A stretch of DNA of 64,000 nt, from NCBI RefSeq assembly GCF_054482595.1, contig NZ_CM137008.1, one strand, 5' to 3'. Each line of letters begins with the position of its first letter. Positions within the stretch are counted from its first letter, which is position 1. Shown here in pieces: positions 13,226-55,790 of this stretch. The position numbers were made by a program, and so were the translations under genes. Below the pieces are notes generated by a model. It was given only the letters and a program-made list of their open reading frames with translations, searched no databases and was not told the DNA's origin.

Positions 13226-13544
13226 AGTAGTCTCCTGAGGTTTTATTAGAATCATTATGTTTGAGCGTAGCGTTGGTATCGCTACCAGGCGCGTGAATGT
13301 TACCCCATTTTATGTATGGACATGTAGTGAAAACTACAACCTTGTCGTTCGTTTTGGCATCATTTTCATTATAAAGACGGAATTTTGCATCAGCTTCTCA
13401 TCAAGAAAAACAACTAAAAAATCAATCACAATACTTGTGCATTTCTTTAAACAGTTTTTAAAAACTGATTCCGGGTATGGAGCTATGGGTATTTTCTGTA
13501 CCCAATGCTTTTAACAGCAATTAATTTCATAGGATGAAAGCTCA

Positions 13545-16136
13545 ATGCATCAATCTGGTTCTGTTTCTCTTTGTCGTTCCGCAATATCTGTTCTGGTGGC
13601 TACAGCGTTATATTCACCCATAGCATTGGCATCAACAGTTGAGTATGGTGAGACAGTTGATGGTGTTGTCCTGGAAAAAGATATCCAGCTGGTTTATGGG
13701 ACCGCCAATAATACGAAAATCAATCCTGGCGGAGAACAGCATATTAAAGAATTTGGTATAAGTAGTAATACTGAAATTAACGGCGGGTATCAGTACATTG
13801 AAATGAATGGCACCGCAGAATACTCCGTATTAAATGATGGTTATCAAATTGTTCAAATGGGTGGCGCGGCAAACCAGACTACCCTCAATAATGGTGTGCT
13901 ACAGGTTTATGGCGCAGCGAATGATCCCACGATTAAAGGCGGGCGCTTAATCGTTGAAAAAGATGGGATTACCGTCCTTGCCGCTATCGAAAAGGGAGGA
14001 TTACTGGAGGTTAAAGAGGGGGGATTAGCGATTGCGGTAGATCAGAAAGCAGGCGGTGCTATTAAAGCAACCACGCGGGTCATGGAGGTATTCGGAACAA
14101 ACCGTCTCGGTCAGTTCGATATCAAGAATGGAATTGCAAACAATATGCTGTTGGAAAACGGCGGAAGTTTGCGAGTTGAAGAAAATGACTTCGCTTATAA
14201 TACTACTGTAGATAGTGGCGGCTTACTGGAGGTTATGGATGGCGGGACTGCAACTGGCGTTGATAAAAAAGCAGGCGGAAAATTAATTGTCTCAACGAAT
14301 GCGCTGGAAGTGAGTGGTACAAACAGTAAAGGCCAATTTAGTATAAAAGATGGTGTGTCAAAAAATTATGAACTGGATGATGGTTCCGGGCTTATTGTTA
14401 TGGAGGACACGCAGGCCATTGACACTATCCTTGATGAGCATGCCACTATGCAATCGCTGGGAAAGGATACTGGTACGAGAGTGCAGGCAAATGCGGTATA
14501 TGATCTCGGTCGATCAGATCAGAATGGAAGTATAACGTATTCCTCTAAAGCCATCTCTGAAAATATGGTTATCAACAATGGCCGCGCTAACGTCTGGGCT
14601 GGCACAATGGTTAACGTTTCAGTCAGAGGGAATGATGGCATTCTTGAGGTCATGAAGCCGCAAATAAATTATGCACCCGCAATGTTGGTGGGTAAGGTAG
14701 TGGTTTCTGAGGGCGCTTCTTTTAGAACGCATGGTGCCGTGGATACCAGCAAAGCGGACGTTTCGCTCGAAAATAGCGTATGGACCATCATTGCCGATAT
14801 CACTACGACGAACCAAAACACCCTCCTCAACTTAGCCAACCTTGCGATGTCTGACGCAAATGTGATTATGATGGATGAGCCAGTGACTCGTTCATCAGTG
14901 ACGGCAAGTGCGGAAAATTTCATTACGTTGACCACCAATACCCTGTCGGGAAACGGCAATTTTTATATGCGTACCGATATGGCTAATCATCAGAGCGATC
15001 AGCTCAACGTCACCGGTCAGGCAACAGGTGATTTCAAAATATTCGTGACGGACACCGGTGCCAGCCCGGCAGCAGGAGATAGCCTTACACTGGTAACAAC
15101 GGGCGGCGGTGATGCTGCATTTACGTTGGGCAATGCCGGAGGCGTTGTTGATATCGGTACGTATGAATATACCTTGCTGGATAATGGTAACCATAGCTGG
15201 AGTCTGGCAGAGAATCGCGCGCAAATTACCCCTTCAACCACTGATGTGCTGAATATGGCGGCCGCACAACCGCTGGTATTTGATGCAGAACTGGACACCG
15301 TGCGTGAGCGTCTTGGTAGCGTAAAAGGCGTTAGTTACGATACGGCGATGTGGAGTTCGGCAATTAACACCCGCAACAACGTGACCACTGATGCGGGAGC
15401 TGGTTTTGAGCAAACATTGACGGGCCTGACGCTCGGTATCGATAGCCGTTTCTCCCGTGAAGAAAGCAGCACAATTCGCGGCTTGTTCTTTGGTTACTCT
15501 CATTCTGATATTGGTTTTGATCGCGGCGGAAAAGGTAATATCGATAGCTATACCCTGGGGGCTTATGCCGGTTGGGAGCATCAGAACGGTGCCTATGTTG
15601 ATGGGGTGGTGAAAGTTGACCGTTTTGCCAACACCATCCATGGCAAGATGAGTAATGGGACAACAGCGTTTGGCGATTACAATAGTAACGGCGCGGGTGC
15701 TCATGTTGAGAGCGGGTTCCGTTGGGTTGACGGATTGTGGAGTGTTAGACCCTATCTGGCCTTTACCGGCTTTACCACAGATGGTCAGGACTACACGTTA
15801 TCAAACGGCATGCGCGCGGACGTGGGAAATACCCGGATATTACGCGCTGAAGCGGGAACGGCGGTAAGCTATCACATGGACCTGCAAAACGGTACGACGC
15901 TGGAACCCTGGCTGAAAGCCGCCGTACGTCAGGAATACGCCGATTCTAACCAGGTGAAAGTTAATGACGATGGCAAATTTAATAATGATGTGGCTGGAAC
16001 CCGTGGCGTTTATCAGGCTGGGATAAGGTCATCGTTTACCCCGACGTTAAGCGGTCATTTGTCAGTCAGCTATGGCAATGGCGCAGGGGTAGAATCGCCG
16101 TGGAATACTCAGGCGGGTGTGGTCTGGACGTTCTGA
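13545..16136 (+). CDS. yejO: Autotransporter adhesin YejO (intact)
   Basis: 863-aa ORF with signal peptide, repetitive passenger domain and C-terminal beta-barrel ending in W-T-F; recognised as yejO. Confidence 0.85.
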   Translation: MHQSGSVSLCRSAISVLVATALYSPIALASTVEYGETVDGVVLEKDIQLVYGTANNTKINPGGEQHIKEFGISSNTEINGGYQYIEMNGTAEYSVLNDGYQIVQMGGAANQTTLNNGVLQVYGAANDPTIKGGRLIVEKDGITVLAAIEKGGLLEVKEGGLAIAVDQKAGGAIKATTRVMEVFGTNRLGQFDIKNGIANNMLLENGGSLRVEENDFAYNTTVDSGGLLEVMDGGTATGVDKKAGGKLIVSTNALEVSGTNSKGQFSIKDGVSKNYELDDGSGLIVMEDTQAIDTILDEHATMQSLGKDTGTRVQANAVYDLGRSDQNGSITYSSKAISENMVINNGRANVWAGTMVNVSVRGNDGILEVMKPQINYAPAMLVGKVVVSEGASFRTHGAVDTSKADVSLENSVWTIIADITTTNQNTLLNLANLAMSDANVIMMDEPVTRSSVTASAENFITLTTNTLSGNGNFYMRTDMANHQSDQLNVTGQATGDFKIFVTDTGASPAAGDSLTLVTTGGGDAAFTLGNAGGVVDIGTYEYTLLDNGNHSWSLAENRAQITPSTTDVLNMAAAQPLVFDAELDTVRERLGSVKGVSYDTAMWSSAINTRNNVTTDAGAGFEQTLTGLTLGIDSRFSREESSTIRGLFFGYSHSDIGFDRGGKGNIDSYTLGAYAGWEHQNGAYVDGVVKVDRFANTIHGKMSNGTTAFGDYNSNGAGAHVESGFRWVDGLWSVRPYLAFTGFTTDGQDYTLSNGMRADVGNTRILRAEAGTAVSYHMDLQNGTTLEPWLKAAVRQEYADSNQVKVNDDGKFNNDVAGTRGVYQAGIRSSFTPTLSGHLSVSYGNGAGVESPWNTQAGVVWTF

Positions 16137-16197
16137 TAACAGAAAATAAACAGGCTGTGATGTGTCACGGTCTGTTTATCGAATTAATTGCAGATAT

Positions 16198-16228
16198 AAA
16201 AAAACCAACCGTAAGGGTTGGTTTTTTT
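16198..16228. terminator. Bidirectional rho-independent terminator (original proL/yejO terminator)
   Basis: Stem CCAACC/GGTTGG with loop GTAAG, flanked by an A-run upstream and T-run downstream. Confidence 0.65.
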
Positions 16229-16285
16229 GGGATTTTTGGTCGGCACGAGAGGATTTGAACCTCCGACCCCCGACACCCCATGACG
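16229..16285. repeat. attL: 57-bp direct repeat containing the displaced 3' 48 nt of tRNA-Pro
   Basis: Identical base-for-base to 55706..55762; positions 16237..16284 are the reverse complement of the tRNA-Pro 3' end including CCA. Confidence 0.85.
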
Positions 16286-16537
16286 CCGCTTGAAAAATGC
16301 TGAGAACCGCGCAATCGCTGGTGGTAGGTACTATTCGCATGTATAAACAAACAGTGCTTTTTTAGCAAAATCCGTTCTATATACATCAATGACTTAGGTG
16401 GTGGTTTCTCCCCATGCCACAAGTAGTGTTGAGCTTTACTGAAGCCACTCCATTGGCCTCTACATGGAAACTAACAAGAAAATGTCAGTTGAAGGAGTTT
16501 TATAAATTCATGTTTTCTTCTTCAGGACAACCCATCA

Positions 16538-16566
16538 CCCGCAGGCACCGCCTGCGGGAATTTTGC
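16538..16566 (+). terminator. Rho-independent terminator
   Basis: Stem CCCGCAGG/CCTGCGGG with loop CACCG, followed by AATTTTG. Confidence 0.5.
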
Positions 16567-16654
16567 GACTGTGTTCGTTTTAAATTATAGATGCATCACC
16601 TGATATTCGTGACATACAAACTATGCATTAGCCAGATCTATACTGGATAAGTAT

Positions 16655-18406
16655 TCATTCTAATGCCTTCTCAATGTTTGTATTTATTTCTGATAAACTA
16701 TTAATTACACCGTCAAATACAAAATCAAGAGCGTTACTATAACCAATTGCTAAAGTAGCTGAATCAAATCCTAGTTTTGCTAAATGCTCAATTGATTTGT
16801 TTACTGCTTCATGAGCTTCAGCATTTCTTAAATCATTATTTATAAAAAACGATGCCACTTTTTTATTTTGAGTTTTAAAATCTGCAAATTCTGTGGCGTG
16901 CTTAAGTACAGATGAGTCTTCATTCTGTTCAATAATTGGCTCGATAAGGTTAAGTAATGATTGAAGTAGTTTCAGAGTTTGGAATTTTTCGATGTCTGAT
17001 TTATTAACACCCATTGCAATTAATAATTTTTTTAAAGAGCCTGATTTAATCTTATTTAAAATCTCATTAATAGTCTTACATCTATTCAAAAAATCCGGTT
17101 CTTGCATGTCATTTGGCGCAACAAATGCTAGCTTCTGCAATACTGGATAGTTAGAGATTCCTTCTGATTCTAACTCTGTGCGATTAATTTCTAAAATGTC
17201 TGCATTGGATAAAGTAACACCAATACTTCTACCAAGTGCTACAAGATTATCGCTAAGTCTTGCTAGTTCTCTAGCGAATTTAAATGTTTTAGATACAATA
17301 TGTTCTCCGCTTAAATCATTTTCAGTGATTTGGTTTGGATCCTTAGCATAATCAAAAACATGATAAACCTCCTCTTCAGGAATTCCTCGATACAGCTCAT
17401 AAAACGGAATTCTGACTAAGTTTCTTCCAACCCTGATGCAATCCCTAAAGGACCATTGTCCACCGTAGCTTGGAGCAACCCTATAAGAATAGCCGTCATA
17501 AAATGGAATAGCATCATATGAAGAATCTTTTTCATATTTAGTAAGGAAAGAGTCATTAACCAAGACATATTCATTGTTTCTGATGTCTTTGGCTCTTGAA
17601 CTCGTCATAGGAGTATCATATCCCGGCCATATTAATTCATCTATATTTAATTTTTTACAAAGTTCAGGCTGAACAGATTGTACACTTCCCCATGCTTGCA
17701 ATAATATATTGTCCCCATTATCTACTATCTCAAAATCTATCCAAGGCAAATCAAACTTGAAATGTTTTGACCCAGACAATAAGTTAATTACTTCCGTCGT
17801 TCTTTGAATACGTGCTTCATAGTAAAAAACACGTACACCAACATAATTTCTCATCCAGAGGTATTTTCTTAGATAATCATTACGCATTGTCCATTTTACA
17901 TCTTTATTACTTCTAAAGTAATACTCGCTTGACACATCCCCTTGTGCGACTCCATAATCGGGCAAGCTTACCTCATCGAAAATGACTTTTTGCTCAGTGT
18001 CACCTATAAGTCTGGGTTTTAGACCAAGCATCATCCATACATCTTCAGCTAAAAAAAATGAAAAGTGAGAACTATCACCCCAAGAAGCTACAATATACTT
18101 ATAACCTGAAATTGATAAACTATAATCTCTTGCTCCGCCTTTAGACCTACAGTCAGGAGTCGAAAATGAAACTAAACCATTAGTAGACTCCTGGAGAACT
18201 TTGATATTATTGATATCTTCTTGTGGTACGGTAGCCATTGTCATATGAGCACACTCATGATTATCTTTAAAAAGATTTTTTTCGTATCTATGTGTGACAA
18301 TGACCTCTTTCTGTGGATTAGTAATATCCTCTATAGATAATAAATCTTTAAGACCTTGAGGGATCTGATCTACTGGTAAAGGTAATTGTGATATATAGTC
18401 AATCAT
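16655..18406 (-). CDS. Hypothetical 583-aa protein (prophage cargo between attL and int)
   Basis: Long uninterrupted ORF in an AT-rich segment with its own AT-rich upstream region; no motif I can assign (no Walker A, HNH or similar). Confidence 0.6.
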   Translation of the reverse strand: MIDYISQLPLPVDQIPQGLKDLLSIEDITNPQKEVIVTHRYEKNLFKDNHECAHMTMATVPQEDINNIKVLQESTNGLVSFSTPDCRSKGGARDYSLSISGYKYIVASWGDSSHFSFFLAEDVWMMLGLKPRLIGDTEQKVIFDEVSLPDYGVAQGDVSSEYYFRSNKDVKWTMRNDYLRKYLWMRNYVGVRVFYYEARIQRTTEVINLLSGSKHFKFDLPWIDFEIVDNGDNILLQAWGSVQSVQPELCKKLNIDELIWPGYDTPMTSSRAKDIRNNEYVLVNDSFLTKYEKDSSYDAIPFYDGYSYRVAPSYGGQWSFRDCIRVGRNLVRIPFYELYRGIPEEEVYHVFDYAKDPNQITENDLSGEHIVSKTFKFARELARLSDNLVALGRSIGVTLSNADILEINRTELESEGISNYPVLQKLAFVAPNDMQEPDFLNRCKTINEILNKIKSGSLKKLLIAMGVNKSDIEKFQTLKLLQSLLNLIEPIIEQNEDSSVLKHATEFADFKTQNKKVASFFINNDLRNAEAHEAVNKSIEHLAKLGFDSATLAIGYSNALDFVFDGVINSLSEINTNIEKALE

Positions 18407-18728: not shown

Positions 18729-19913
18729 TTAACTGGCTTTAATTTCTCCATGTGGTACGACAACCCAATCAATATGGTTTTGCGTATAAATCTTGGTTGA
18801 CTTGGAGTCGCTGTGCGCCATTCGTGCTTGCGGATCGATACCTTGCTGATCGAAAAGATACGCTGCTAATGCTCTAATTTCGTGAAAGGTTGGTCTTTCA
18901 TCTATCGGTAGATTGTCGCATAAACCTAGCTTGTCACGTGTGGCTGAAAACGACCGGCTCAAATAGTCCGGTGCAACTTGAGTAGGGTGTGAAACCTCTT
19001 TGCTGCGTTTAACCTGCCGTTCAGGGATCCTGTGAACGACAAACGGACTGGCCACATTATCTCGGCTATCATCAATTATTCGTTTCAACTCTTCACCAAT
19101 CGGTATTGCAACGTGTGATGCCTCTTTTTTTTGCACTTTTTGCCTGTGGATGTAAAGCGTCCCATATATGCCATTTTGTGGTTGTTCGAACCAGACACAT
19201 CCACATATACCGTCTTTAGGTTCGCGAATTGAGTAACGGATTCGCGATACTTCGAGTCGTGCATGTGTAGTCTGCAATGCTAGGTCCATTGCTGTTCTTA
19301 ACCATGGTGCAGCGGCCTGCCTGATAGCTATAAAATGCTCGAGTGACAGGCGCCGTCTTTTCTTCTCATCAGTCCTACGCATTTTTTTTCTGATGGCCGG
19401 GTTATCCAGCATTAGTGATTCATCGACCGCATAAGAGAACAACTTTTTAAGGAAGCTGACCTTTCTGTTCTGCACATTTGCGGATGCGCAGGCATGATAT
19501 TTATTGATGTAGGTATTAACGTGTTCAAGTGCAATATCGCATGCTGGAACATTTACGAAAAACGCTTTTACGCGTAGAGCGTCATTTTTCCAGTCATCTA
19601 AGGTGCTCTGGGAAGGACGTTCGTCTTCGATAATCCGGGTCATTATGTGATCAACATGTTCAGCAAATGGTTTTGCTTCTCCGATAACACCGCCAGATTC
19701 TCTAATAAGATTATCTACTGATGGAGATAATTCTGGTCGCATCCTCAGGTTGTACTCTCTGGCGATTGCAATGGCTATTGCCCTATCCTTACCTATATTT
19801 TTCTTCTTTCCGGTAATAAGTGTGAATTTATAAACACCTCGATCTTTATCAAAAATCAGATAATCAGGAAGATGTCTGTATTCTTTTTTACGTGGCCTTG
19901 CCGCCATGGTCAC
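18729..19913 (-). CDS. int: Tyrosine-type site-specific integrase (lambda Int family)
   Basis: 394 aa; C-terminal catalytic motifs HEIRAL (HxxR) and KIYTQNH (Tyr nucleophile); lies near attL. Confidence 0.88.
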   Translation of the reverse strand: MTMAARPRKKEYRHLPDYLIFDKDRGVYKFTLITGKKKNIGKDRAIAIAIAREYNLRMRPELSPSVDNLIRESGGVIGEAKPFAEHVDHIMTRIIEDERPSQSTLDDWKNDALRVKAFFVNVPACDIALEHVNTYINKYHACASANVQNRKVSFLKKLFSYAVDESLMLDNPAIRKKMRRTDEKKRRRLSLEHFIAIRQAAAPWLRTAMDLALQTTHARLEVSRIRYSIREPKDGICGCVWFEQPQNGIYGTLYIHRQKVQKKEASHVAIPIGEELKRIIDDSRDNVASPFVVHRIPERQVKRSKEVSHPTQVAPDYLSRSFSATRDKLGLCDNLPIDERPTFHEIRALAAYLFDQQGIDPQARMAHSDSKSTKIYTQNHIDWVVVPHGEIKAS

Positions 19914-23770: not shown

Positions 23771-24701
23771 ATTAACCGGCTATGTATGGGATGGTTGCGC
23801 TGCGTCAGGCATGAAGTTATCCAGCGTGGCAATTATGGCCCGCCTGGCTGATTTCAGTAATGACGAAGGTGTGTGCTGGCCATCAATTGAAACCATTGCC
23901 CGCCAGATTGGCGCGGGGATGAGCACCGTCAGAACGGCTATCGCACGGCTGGAAGCAGAAGGCTGGTTAACTCGTAAGGCGCGTCGCCAGGGTAACCGCA
24001 ATGCGTCGAATGTTTATCAGCTTAACGTTGCGAAGCTTCAGGCAGCGGCATTTTCTCAACTGTCAGATTCTGACCCGTCAAAATCTGACGCATCAAAATC
24101 TGACCCGTCAAAATTTGATGCGTCGAAATCTGGCAAAAAAGCGGGTTTTCACCCGTCAGAATCTGGCGGGGATCCGTCAGTAAAATCAAAACATGATCCG
24201 TCAGATAAAAAAAACTCTCGTCCGGACGCTTCGCAACCGGACACGCAGATGGATGAACAGGATTTTTTAACTCGCCATCCTGATGCGGTTGTATTCAGCC
24301 CTAAAAAGCGCCAGTGGGGGACGCAGGATGATTTGACCTGCGCACAGTGGCTCTGGAAAAAAATCATCGCCCTGTACGAGCAGGCTGCCGAATGTGACGG
24401 CGAGGTGGTTCGTCCCAAAGAACCGAACTGGACAGCCTGGGCAAACGAAATTCGCCTGATGTGTGTGCAGGATGGTCGTACTCACAAACAAATCTGCGAG
24501 ATGTACAGCCGCGTCAGCCGCGATCCGTTCTGGTGCCGTAACGTGCTCAGCCCGTCGAAGCTGCGGGAAAAATGGGATGAGCTTTCCCTGCGCTTATCGC
24601 CGTCCGTAAGCACGTACACCGAAAAACGCGAAGACCCGTACTTCAAATCCAGTTACGACAACGTGGACTACAGCCAGATCCCGGCAGGATTCAGGGGGTG
24701 A
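23760..24701 (+). CDS. Phage replication initiation protein (N-terminal HTH, central SKSD repeat linker, DnaT-like C-terminus)
   Basis: 313 aa; N-terminal winged-helix-like region (IARQIGAGMSTVRTAIARLEAEGWL); repeat peptide DPSKSDASKSDPSKFDASKSG encoded by DNA iterons; position equivalent to lambda O. Confidence 0.7.
   Translation: MSTKLTGYVWDGCAASGMKLSSVAIMARLADFSNDEGVCWPSIETIARQIGAGMSTVRTAIARLEAEGWLTRKARRQGNRNASNVYQLNVAKLQAAAFSQLSDSDPSKSDASKSDPSKFDASKSGKKAGFHPSESGGDPSVKSKHDPSDKKNSRPDASQPDTQMDEQDFLTRHPDAVVFSPKKRQWGTQDDLTCAQWLWKKIIALYEQAAECDGEVVRPKEPNWTAWANEIRLMCVQDGRTHKQICEMYSRVSRDPFWCRNVLSPSKLREKWDELSLRLSPSVSTYTEKREDPYFKSSYDNVDYSQIPAGFRG
24069..24128. repeat. Four tandem 15-bp iterons (TCTGACNCNTCAAAA) inside the replication gene, putative ori
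   Basis: Direct repeats, each with internal dyad GTCA-AAAT-CTGAC, followed by further CCGTCAG motifs and an A-rich tract; same layout as lambda ori inside O. Confidence 0.55.
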
Positions 24702-52980: not shown

Positions 52981-54930
52981 TTAATCGTGTTTTGGCCATA
53001 CTTTCAATGCAATTTCCCCCAACTTTTTACCCCGCTCCAGGATTTCATCCTCATCCCATTTATCCTTAACTATAAGTGGAATGTTCAGTCGTAGATTGGT
53101 GTGGACGATGAGAGCATCACGTTTTTTCAGAAATACAGCATTCTGAACAGAACGGTTTACGCTAAGGTTAAGCAAAGTTAGATTTCCCAACGTAGCTATC
53201 GCTTGTTGCCGTTTCCTTACCAGTAGCTGTTCAGGGGTAAGATCGGTTCCAGACAGAACAATTTGGTTCAATACCGTAGCATCTGAATTTGTCACCATAT
53301 GACCATTTTCGAGAGGCCAACAGGAAAACCAACTTTGAGGCATAAGATGATCGATATCGAGATTGGAAAGATTTGGACCATCAGGCTTCTCTGTCTTCAC
53401 TTGGCGACAAAGTTCTCTTTCAAGTTCCGTTAACATTGAGCGCATTTTCGGTGCGTCGAGCCTGCCAGGATAAAGTGGAGCATTGATGCAAGCATTGAGA
53501 AATTCTGAGTCACCAGGCCAACGTGAGGCTTCGCCATTTAAGCTATTGAGGATATTACGTAACTCAACACTGGAAATTTCCGTTTTAGACAAGTGCCGCA
53601 ATACATTCATAAATACATTGTTGTAATTCTTTGGCGTCAGGCCACATACGGCTCTTCGTACTACGTAGGAGACAAGATCATTATACATGGCTGCTTTCTC
53701 ATCATCAGCGATGTTAGCTATCGAAATGAACAAAGCAAGCGGATAAAGTGTCGTCACATCATAGTCTGCGATGCGATATCCAAAGTGTGAGATGGGGGTT
53801 GTGCCAAAACCATCAACCAATTCTTTATATTGTGATGCATATTGTTTGAGGCGCTTTACTTGCAGATCTGCTCGTTGTGAAGACAAGTCCTTACTTACAT
53901 AATCACGATACTCATTGTAAAGGCGAGACAGATCAATTTCACGCTGCCTTTCTGATTGCAATGTCGCATGTACTAGCCACTCCATGCGTGGTTTATTAAT
54001 ACGTCCACGGCGTTGCTTTTCCGACCAGTATTTATCTTCAAAGCTCTTCCACTCATTTTCATATAATTCAATAGCATTAATATTTTCATGCTCAGCGCAC
54101 ATAAAGATATAGTTGCGAATAAGATCCGTGGCATGAAGTTCCGCCCCTCGCCCATTTAATGTTTCAAAAATTATTTGGGCATCATCTTCAGCTTCGAGAA
54201 ATATGCTTACCAGTTTCAGATCTGTTAAGACAGCCTCAATTAGAGCTACAGCATTTTCTTGTGGTGAGTGGTTTTCTATTTTAATCCATTTTATAAAGGC
54301 TTCAGTAAAAAAACATAATGCTTCTAGTGATGGCGGGTGATTAAAATGCTTACGCAACGTACCATGCTGCGTGAAACTATCAGAGAATACGTCCCGGAGA
54401 TCGTCAATATTTTCAACATTAAAACTTTGAATAAAATGAGTTTGATCCCGAAAAGTTGGCCATAGTTTGAAGCGTTCTACTTCTTTATTTCGCATTGTGT
54501 CTTCGTTTGAGTTTTTCAGGCAAGGCGAAATGAGAGCCTCTAAGCTGAAAAGATCCGTAGCACGTAATGCTAATCGGATGGATGCCAGAACATATTGAAG
54601 AGTGGTCAATCGTTGCTGACCATCAATAATATGTATGGAATCTACACCTAATAATCCTTTTTTTGATTGAGGTTCCAGTACAACCGCACCAAGGAAATGG
54701 GGAGTTGGTTTTGTACCCGAGAGCCGGGATTGTGCTTTCTCTAGGATATCCTCCAGTAGAGCTGACCATTGGTCTTGCTGAGTCCATACATAGGCACGTT
54801 GATAGAATGGAACACAGTATTGTCGGCGGTCTTGAAAAAGTTGTTGGACAGTTAGCGTCTCGGATTTCATGGTATACCTGTAAGCGACATTGTACAAAAG
54901 TGAGGAGTTAATCTGATTTAGAACAATCAT
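52981..54930 (-). CDS. GmrSD-like type IV restriction endonuclease family protein (N-terminal DUF262, C-terminal DUF1524/HNH-like)
   Basis: 649 aa; DUF262 motifs (YCVPFYQRAYVW, IIDGQQRLTTL) and C-terminal His-Me finger region (LDIDHLMPQSW ... NLTLLNLSVNRS); AT-rich. Confidence 0.75.
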   Translation of the reverse strand: MIVLNQINSSLLYNVAYRYTMKSETLTVQQLFQDRRQYCVPFYQRAYVWTQQDQWSALLEDILEKAQSRLSGTKPTPHFLGAVVLEPQSKKGLLGVDSIHIIDGQQRLTTLQYVLASIRLALRATDLFSLEALISPCLKNSNEDTMRNKEVERFKLWPTFRDQTHFIQSFNVENIDDLRDVFSDSFTQHGTLRKHFNHPPSLEALCFFTEAFIKWIKIENHSPQENAVALIEAVLTDLKLVSIFLEAEDDAQIIFETLNGRGAELHATDLIRNYIFMCAEHENINAIELYENEWKSFEDKYWSEKQRRGRINKPRMEWLVHATLQSERQREIDLSRLYNEYRDYVSKDLSSQRADLQVKRLKQYASQYKELVDGFGTTPISHFGYRIADYDVTTLYPLALFISIANIADDEKAAMYNDLVSYVVRRAVCGLTPKNYNNVFMNVLRHLSKTEISSVELRNILNSLNGEASRWPGDSEFLNACINAPLYPGRLDAPKMRSMLTELERELCRQVKTEKPDGPNLSNLDIDHLMPQSWFSCWPLENGHMVTNSDATVLNQIVLSGTDLTPEQLLVRKRQQAIATLGNLTLLNLSVNRSVQNAVFLKKRDALIVHTNLRLNIPLIVKDKWDEDEILERGKKLGEIALKVWPKHD

Positions 54931-55673: not shown

Positions 55674-55703
55674 AAAAAAACCAGCCATAATAGGCTGGTT
55701 TTT
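55674..55703. terminator. Bidirectional rho-independent terminator (phage-borne homologue of the proL terminator)
   Basis: Stem CCAGCC/GGCTGG with loop ATAATA flanked by A-run and T-run; lies just 3' of the restored tRNA-Pro. Confidence 0.65.
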
Positions 55704-55705
55704 AA

Positions 55706-55762
55706 GGGATTTTTGGTCGGCACGAGAGGATTTGAACCTCCGACCCCCGACACCCCATGACG
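55706..55762. repeat. attR: 57-bp direct repeat (overlaps 3' part of intact proL)
   Basis: Identical to 16229..16285. Confidence 0.85.
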
Positions 55763-55790
55763 GTGCGCTACCAGGCTGCGCTACGTGCCG
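55714..55790 (-). tRNA. proL: tRNA-Pro (anticodon GGG)
   Basis: 77 nt; reverse complement reads CGGCACGTAGCGCAGCCTGGTAGCGCACCGTCATGGGGTGTCGGGGGTCGGAGGTTCAAATCCTCTCGTGCCGACCA with T-loop GGTTCAAATCC and CCA end. Confidence 0.92.

Follow-up and report, generated by a model that had tools for sequence, protein, structure and literature searches.

The closest described relatives of the autotransporter YejO are the self-associating E. coli adhesins Ag43 (Flu), AIDA-I and TibA, in which a signal peptide precedes a β-helical passenger built from AIDA-type repeats, with a barrel at the C-terminus. At the cell surface, the passengers of AIDA-I/Ag43-like proteins mediate adhesion, autoaggregation or biofilm formation. 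Pertactin, BrkA and Vag8 from Bordetella resemble YejO in having homologous pertactin and barrel domains. However, they belong to another genus and carry other passengers, and their functions in adhesion and serum resistance are not transferable to YejO. In E. coli K-12, an IS5K element close to the start codon has turned yejO into a pseudogene (PMC11005336, PMC11677980). The literature that we found on YejO is confined to the use of the gene as a neutral Keio control, studies of IS5, presence/absence surveys and a prophage site at proL in Shigella; in the searchable literature, we found neither experiments on the function of YejO nor a report of an adhesion phenotype.

We examined a stretch of 64,000 nucleotides from contig NZ_CM137008.1 (RefSeq assembly GCF_054482595.1), which we call the window, and found that it contains an intact, coding-competent yejO at 13545-16136 on the plus strand. 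The coding sequence starts with ATG and comprises 863 codons plus a stop in one open reading frame, and its translation of 863 aa has no internal stop. The ATG is the first start codon past the preceding in-frame stop in the ORF listing, and a 5' extension of the frame is impossible. By simple arithmetic, the chance that 863 codons stay open in random sequence is about (61/64)^863, or ~1e-18. An earlier note, made from the letters of this DNA, had called the frame uninterrupted and the gene yejO. The ORF listing and the stop-free translation confirm the first claim, and the second is upheld by the narP-yejO-proL synteny, by 97.7% amino acid identity with the reconstituted K-12 YejO and by an identical RefSeq protein, WP_021556989.1, named 'autotransporter YejO'. 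Genes in the window follow the order nap-ccm(ccmH)-narP(-)-yejO(+)-proL remnant-[prophage]-proL-yejM. With the prophage discounted, this is the order (ccm-narP-yejO-proL-yejM) of K-12, XH990, O157:H7 and others. Its position between narP and proL/yejM, together with collinear similarity over the full length, places the protein in the YejO orthologous group, and we found nothing that contradicts this identification. The feature is thus almost certainly the ordinary chromosomal yejO of E. coli in its undisrupted ancestral state, encoding an AIDA-I/Ag43-like type Va autotransporter.

In the K-12 MG1655 sequence NC_000913.3, yejO (b2190) carries a pseudogene annotation, and IS5K/insH8 divides it into two fragments of 67 nt and 2525 nt, which when joined give 2592 nt, or 863 codons plus a stop. 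The alignment with the MG1655 yejO region that the earlier note had proposed is gapless over 863 codons once IS5K is removed, with 2,546 of 2,592 nucleotides (98.2%) and 843 of 863 amino acids (97.7%) identical to the reconstituted gene. This leaves 46 nucleotide differences and 20 amino acid substitutions; the latter are mostly conservative, and 17 of the 20 lie within passenger residues 72-325. The K-12 copy differs from that of the window because IS5K landed in codon 23, after nucleotide 67 of the gene and within the signal peptide, where the element is flanked by a 4-bp duplication (ATAA/TTAT, TTAT on the gene strand). The gene of K-12 lies at the same locus (narP-yejO-proL) and has the same length minus IS5K and one copy of the duplication, and the upstream region is nearly identical, with four differences in the 289 nt immediately 5' of the ATG. 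In the window, by contrast, the target site TTAT (13608-13611, +) is unoccupied and present in one copy, and both the signal peptide and the reading frame are continuous. The statement in the earlier note that K-12 yejO is disrupted by an insertion sequence is borne out by the NC_000913.3 annotation and by the published descriptions (PMC11005336, PMC11677980). The claim that the strain is not K-12 likewise holds, given the empty IS5K site, the 46 nucleotide differences in yejO and a 39.5-kb prophage in proL that K-12 lacks; the adjoining proL site is empty in K-12 and occupied in the window.

The possibility that the frame is truncated was also considered and is ruled out. Its 863 aa equal the length of the reconstituted K-12 gene product, of YejO from O157:H7 and of every other intact allele checked, and the barrel profile is matched to its end. 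TIGR01414 aligns to residues 456-863 (14910-16133, +; E=5e-111) from model position 2 through the last, 432 of 432.

The domain complement of YejO is full. A Sec signal peptide is predicted for residues 1-29 (13545-13631, +) from the translation read by eye rather than from a scored prediction. By this inspection it would consist of an n-region (MHQSGSVSLCR) with a positive charge at Arg11, a hydrophobic core (SAISVLVATALY) and a c-region (SPIALA) that is followed by S and places A-L-A at positions -3 to -1. The passenger, comprising residues ~30-555 (13632-15209, +), is made up of AIDA repeats and a pertactin-like domain. Pfam PF16168 (AIDA) matches it in two stretches (E=3e-51), the best-scoring of which, a stretch of AIDA-type β-helix repeats, covers residues 184-245 (14094-14279, +), and the NCBIfam strand-loop-strand repeat TIGR04415, a heptosylation-target repeat, matches in three stretches (62.5 bits). 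The pertactin-like domain forms the C-terminal end of the passenger at residues 431-555 (14835-15209, +; PF03212, E=7e-46, profile positions 2-120 of 121). Its place in the protein is the one for which the term autochaperone region is commonly used, and by analogy with the family literature it may have an autochaperone role. The β-barrel translocator domain spans residues 602-841 (15348-16067, +; PF03797, E=3.7e-46, positions 1-254 of 255), and the protein ends in VVWTF with the terminal Phe kept. An aromatic C-terminal residue is typical of outer-membrane barrels. With a barrel complete to its terminal aromatic residue, a signal peptide identified by inspection and a passenger with β-helical repeats on the same polypeptide, YejO has all the parts of a classical type Va autotransporter and is a relative of Ag43, AIDA-I and TibA that is separate from all three.

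This relationship is reflected in matches to PDB sequences, where the passenger matched Ag43, an AIDA-I family adhesin and TibA (E=1e-25 to 1e-36), the pertactin-like domain matched P.69 pertactin and the barrel matched Vag8 and BrkA. YejO is nevertheless not an orthologue of either Ag43 or AIDA-I, scoring 129 bits with NF033177 and 68 bits with NF033176 against an equivalog cut-off of 1200 in each case. AIDA-I and TibA also have an adjacent heptosyltransferase gene of the aah/tibC type, whereas yejO is flanked by narP and the proL remnant, and we found no glycosyltransferase gene among the neighbouring genes examined. Ag43 likewise lacks an adjacent heptosyltransferase, so this trait is not definitive for the whole group.

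Established knowledge of the autotransporter family supplies the steps by which YejO would reach the surface. The 29-residue signal peptide would direct Sec export, after which the Bam machinery would insert the C-terminal domain (residues ~602-863) into the outer membrane as a β-barrel. The passenger (residues ~30-555), predicted to be an AIDA-repeat β-helix capped by the pertactin-like region, would then be threaded to the cell surface.

Downstream of yejO lies a prophage of lambdoid type, about 39.5 kb long, integrated in proL (16286-55762, with 39,477 bp between the att repeats). The attL core is a proL remnant on the minus strand (16237-16285), identified from the direct repeat and the K-12 alignment, that consists of the 3'-terminal 49 nt of tRNA-Pro(GGG). 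It starts 101 bp after the yejO stop codon, in agreement with the earlier claim that yejO adjoins the prophage insertion site. A direct repeat of 70 nt (16216-16285 and 55693-55762, 96% identical) contains these 49 nt of the tRNA. At attR, proL is intact (55714-55790, -) according to ARAGORN, the Rfam tRNA model and the K-12 alignment, and it is the only tRNA that ARAGORN finds in the window. The K-12 alignment shows that the 3' 49 nt of this proL come from the phage copy of the repeat and that the phage also brings its own terminator. The prophage integrase is encoded at 18729-19913 (-), as identified by PHROG matches, and a homologous prophage is annotated in strain LP50-1. A 583-aa ORF in the prophage cargo had no match in Pfam, NCBIfam, PADLOC, PHROGs, the PDB sequences or a phage collection. 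In Shigella flexneri, phages are known to integrate at the yejO/proL locus (PMC4924310).

Disruption of the 3' end of yejO by the prophage is ruled out. Collinearity with K-12 runs from the yejO stop codon for a further 149 nt, through the terminator and to the end of the 49-nt proL remnant, and breaks at 16285/16286. The terminator-like element is a hairpin with a 14-pair stem and flanking A and T runs found by a terminator scan (16197-16229), and it appears to be bidirectional. It lies between yejO and the proL remnant, is chromosomal in that it continues the yejO-proL spacer of K-12, and has been kept after prophage integration. The prophage has left both the gene and its terminator untouched.

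To place this allele within the species, yejO was compared by megablast with 5,426 complete E. coli genomes. Nearly all match, and the gene is annotated as 'yejO: autotransporter YejO' beside narP. Some yejO sequence is present in 5,421 of these genomes, and at least 80% of the gene is found in one place in 4,281. The exact protein of the window is found on at least 780 public contigs, and the cluster to which it belongs at 90% identity comprises 16,859 sequences. Strain XH990 has yejO DNA that is 100% identical and encodes the same WP_021556989.1, but lacks a prophage at proL. Between the window allele and that of O157:H7 (WP_000554210.1), 30 nt and 10 aa differ. Across the 13.2-kb nap-ccm-narP segment, the window is 100% identical to several E. 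coli chromosomes, such as those of O157:H16 Santai and THO-010. LP50-1, the closest prophage-bearing relative and the best full-coverage match of the complete-genome collection (98.6%), carries a yejO allele with the nonsense change W789*. In none of the 5,426 genomes does this yejO allele occur together with this prophage junction. The gene and this allele of it had been recorded before, as had the K-12 lesion and the integration site.

We classified yejO in 40 complete genomes, an evenly spaced sample of the match ranking, using the RefSeq annotation and our own translations. An intact gene of 863 codons was found in 16, including O157:H7 and LF4-1; the LF4-1 gene is intact, but RefSeq places the start of its CDS further downstream. 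This share of ~40% (16/40; Clopper-Pearson 95% interval ~25-57%) makes intact yejO the commonest single state in the species. Seven genomes share the nonsense mutation W789* (TGG to TGA), and in five of these seven the start codon is gone as well (ATG to ATT). Frameshifts account for three genomes, one of them verified and two inferred from a net deficit of 1 nt, and insertion sequences interrupt the gene in another three (IS5 in two K-12-lineage strains, IS1203 in one). Deletions, 11 of 40 when taken together, comprise an in-frame loss of 222 nt that leaves 789 aa (two genomes) and remnants of large deletions (nine genomes). IS2 and IS3-family insertions were seen in genomes beyond this sample. 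Because ~60% of the genomes in the sample have lost yejO or carry a broken copy, and because ST131 is reported to lack the gene (PMC5654935), we consider it dispensable. Intactness excludes K-12, but it is otherwise a weak strain marker because ~40% of the sampled complete genomes are also intact.

The surviving alleles carry a signature of constraint. Nei-Gojobori dN/dS between the window yejO and nine other alleles ranged from 0.12 to 0.28, and the ratio of mean dN to mean dS over all pairs of the ten alleles was ~0.13 for the barrel and ~0.24 for the passenger. These values indicate that YejO has been under long-term purifying selection. The sample of 40 genomes contains at least eight kinds of lesion, namely IS5, IS1203, W789*, at least one verified frameshift, the 222-nt deletion and at least three sizes of large deletion. 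That the gene has been inactivated by many independent routes despite long-term purifying selection is a mildly interesting by-product of the survey.

These observations bear on whether the open frame of the window is a gene on its way out, that is, a frame open only by chance whose protein is already disabled by missense changes, in a family that is decaying across E. coli, and which is not yet obvious as a pseudogene. The repeated inactivation in the 40 genomes by W789* (7), frameshifts (3), IS insertions (3) and deletions (11) is what such decay would produce. However, we regard it as highly improbable for this allele. The identical protein recurs on at least 780 contigs, the matches to every HMM domain run from end to end with the terminal Phe retained, the 20 residues that differ from K-12 are for the most part conservative changes in the passenger, and dN/dS for the window allele, at 0.12-0.28, is far from 1. 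A different explanation of the lesions would be that the loss of yejO is repeatedly of advantage to E. coli lineages, even though dN/dS of the surviving alleles is ~0.2. We consider this doubtful. If the losses were adaptive, with YejO acting for example as a receptor for phages, as a target of immunity or as a costly protein of the cell surface, intact alleles such as this one would mark lineages that live in niches in which the adhesin still pays.

The reading that we prefer, an intact ancestral gene encoding an AIDA-I/Ag43-like autotransporter, leaves two questions about its product. The earlier note had suggested that the strain might be expressing a functional adhesin. We infer that yejO may be transcribed in the strain of the window and that its product may be an adhesin, and homology makes a functional adhesin a possibility for YejO. 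A passenger with some other activity, such as that of a protease, an esterase or a toxin, is unlikely. Autotransporter passengers are functionally diverse and no experiment in the searchable literature defines the activity of YejO, which leaves room for such an activity, but Pfam and NCBIfam scans of the passenger detected no protease, lipase or toxin family, the sole matches being the AIDA repeats and the pertactin domain. Its nearest solved relatives, Ag43, the AIDA-I family protein and TibA, are moreover adhesins. A stronger challenge, to which we give slightly less than an even chance, is that yejO is intact but cryptic, being transcriptionally silent under most conditions and in effect contributing nothing to the phenotype. 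The identification of the gene would stand in that case, and only the expression of a functional adhesin is disputed. The 319 nt between the divergent narP and yejO genes (13226-13544, +), presumed to be the yejO regulatory region, are AT-rich, with 36% GC overall and 32.5% in the last 200 nt, in keeping with a silent gene. Silence under most conditions is reported for several other autotransporter adhesin genes of E. coli whose promoters are AT-rich, and the idea that H-NS silences yejO is drawn from background knowledge of such related genes. The region has AGGA at 13531-13534, 10 nt before the ATG. A simple scan found no sigma-70 consensus promoter on the plus strand of these 319 nt, which also points towards silence. 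However, the scan is a crude match to the sigma-70 consensus and is blind to other sigma factors and activator-dependent promoters, which are outside its scope. In K-12, the downstream yejO fragment is among the least often detected transcripts, being found in few RNA-seq data sets (106 of 3,376); this too favours a cryptic gene, and polarity of IS5K may explain part of it. The yejO promoter has been termed putative and uncharacterised (PMC11677980), again in line with a cryptic gene. Against silence, dN/dS of ~0.2 across the divergence of the species implies that the protein has been made and selected. The complete set of domains, the upstream 289 nt with their four differences from K-12 and the retained terminator hairpin likewise count in favour of a functional gene.

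Identification of this locus as an intact yejO is correct but ordinary, and its practical value lies in annotation, since the gene should be recorded as an intact yejO and not as a pseudogene. The IS5K lesion of K-12 is specific to that strain. The function of YejO is a minor question, and the natural, intact allele described here would be a suitable template for studies of expression. The strain that carries it is a wild-type E. coli other than K-12 that can encode, in full, one further AIDA-type autotransporter.

A premature stop in the β-barrel of the yejO autotransporter gene, W789* (TGG to TGA), is common to seven of the 40 genomes in which we classified the state of yejO and is also present in LP50-1, the closest prophage-bearing relative. 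We located this allele at 15546-18137 of comparison locus L001 and in loci L005, L006, L007, L010, and L017-L019. In five of the seven sampled carriers and in LP50-1 the yejO start codon is also lost (ATG to ATT). W789* marks a widespread pseudogene allele, and this pattern points to one old inactivation followed by further decay. In strain LF4-1 (L016, NZ_CM141450.1), RefSeq places the yejO start 17 codons downstream, and a protein begun there would lack most of its signal peptide. This strain nevertheless has the standard ATG and the whole 863-codon frame, and the discrepancy is an annotation inconsistency with no biological difference.

The intergenic region between narP and yejO in the window is filled by an 85-codon ORF on the plus strand (13257-13514) that has no match in Pfam. 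Its DNA is AT-rich, presumably regulatory, and near-identical to that of K-12, and the ORF most likely arose by chance. On the far side of the prophage, Rfam places an L25-Gammaproteobacteria ribosomal protein leader upstream of rplY (59506-59531, minus strand; 46.9 bits, with the gathering score at 34.1), a feature to be expected in this part of the chromosome.

Within the prophage, six overlapping copies of a unit of approximately 15 nt, TCAAAATCTGACSCR, spaced at 15 nt (24048-24170), resemble iterons such as those in the replication origin of a lambdoid phage. A mid-prophage islet of two genes on the minus strand (28108-30310) has a GC content of 35%. One gene encodes a 344-aa protein of the NA37 family (PF04245, E=8e-69 in Pfam). 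The family takes its name from a nucleoid-associated protein of 37 kD in bacteria, and we take the 344-aa protein to be YejK-like; the host's own chromosomal yejK lies close by. The other is a 395-aa ORF that adjoins and overlaps the NA37 gene and has no match in Pfam or PADLOC.

Just inside attR is a minus-strand gene (52981-54930) for a modification-dependent (type IV) restriction enzyme of the GmrSD type. Its product matches PADLOC mREase_IV over the full length (1418 bits) and contains the GmrSD_N and GmrSD_C domains of Pfam. This is a phage-borne defence gene of known kind. The stretch between attL and the integrase is the usual slot for prophage cargo ('moron') genes, and related prophages carry different genes there. 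Here it contains a 583-aa ORF (16655-18406, minus strand) in DNA of 37% GC. No match to this ORF was found in Pfam, NCBIfam, PADLOC, PHROGs, PDB sequences, or 50,697 phage records. When 5,426 complete E. coli genomes are compared, its DNA occurs in only two, 50EVA and LP50-1; the LP50-1 copy is annotated as a 'hypothetical protein' (WP_105289942.1). We consider this ORF a candidate accessory or defence gene.
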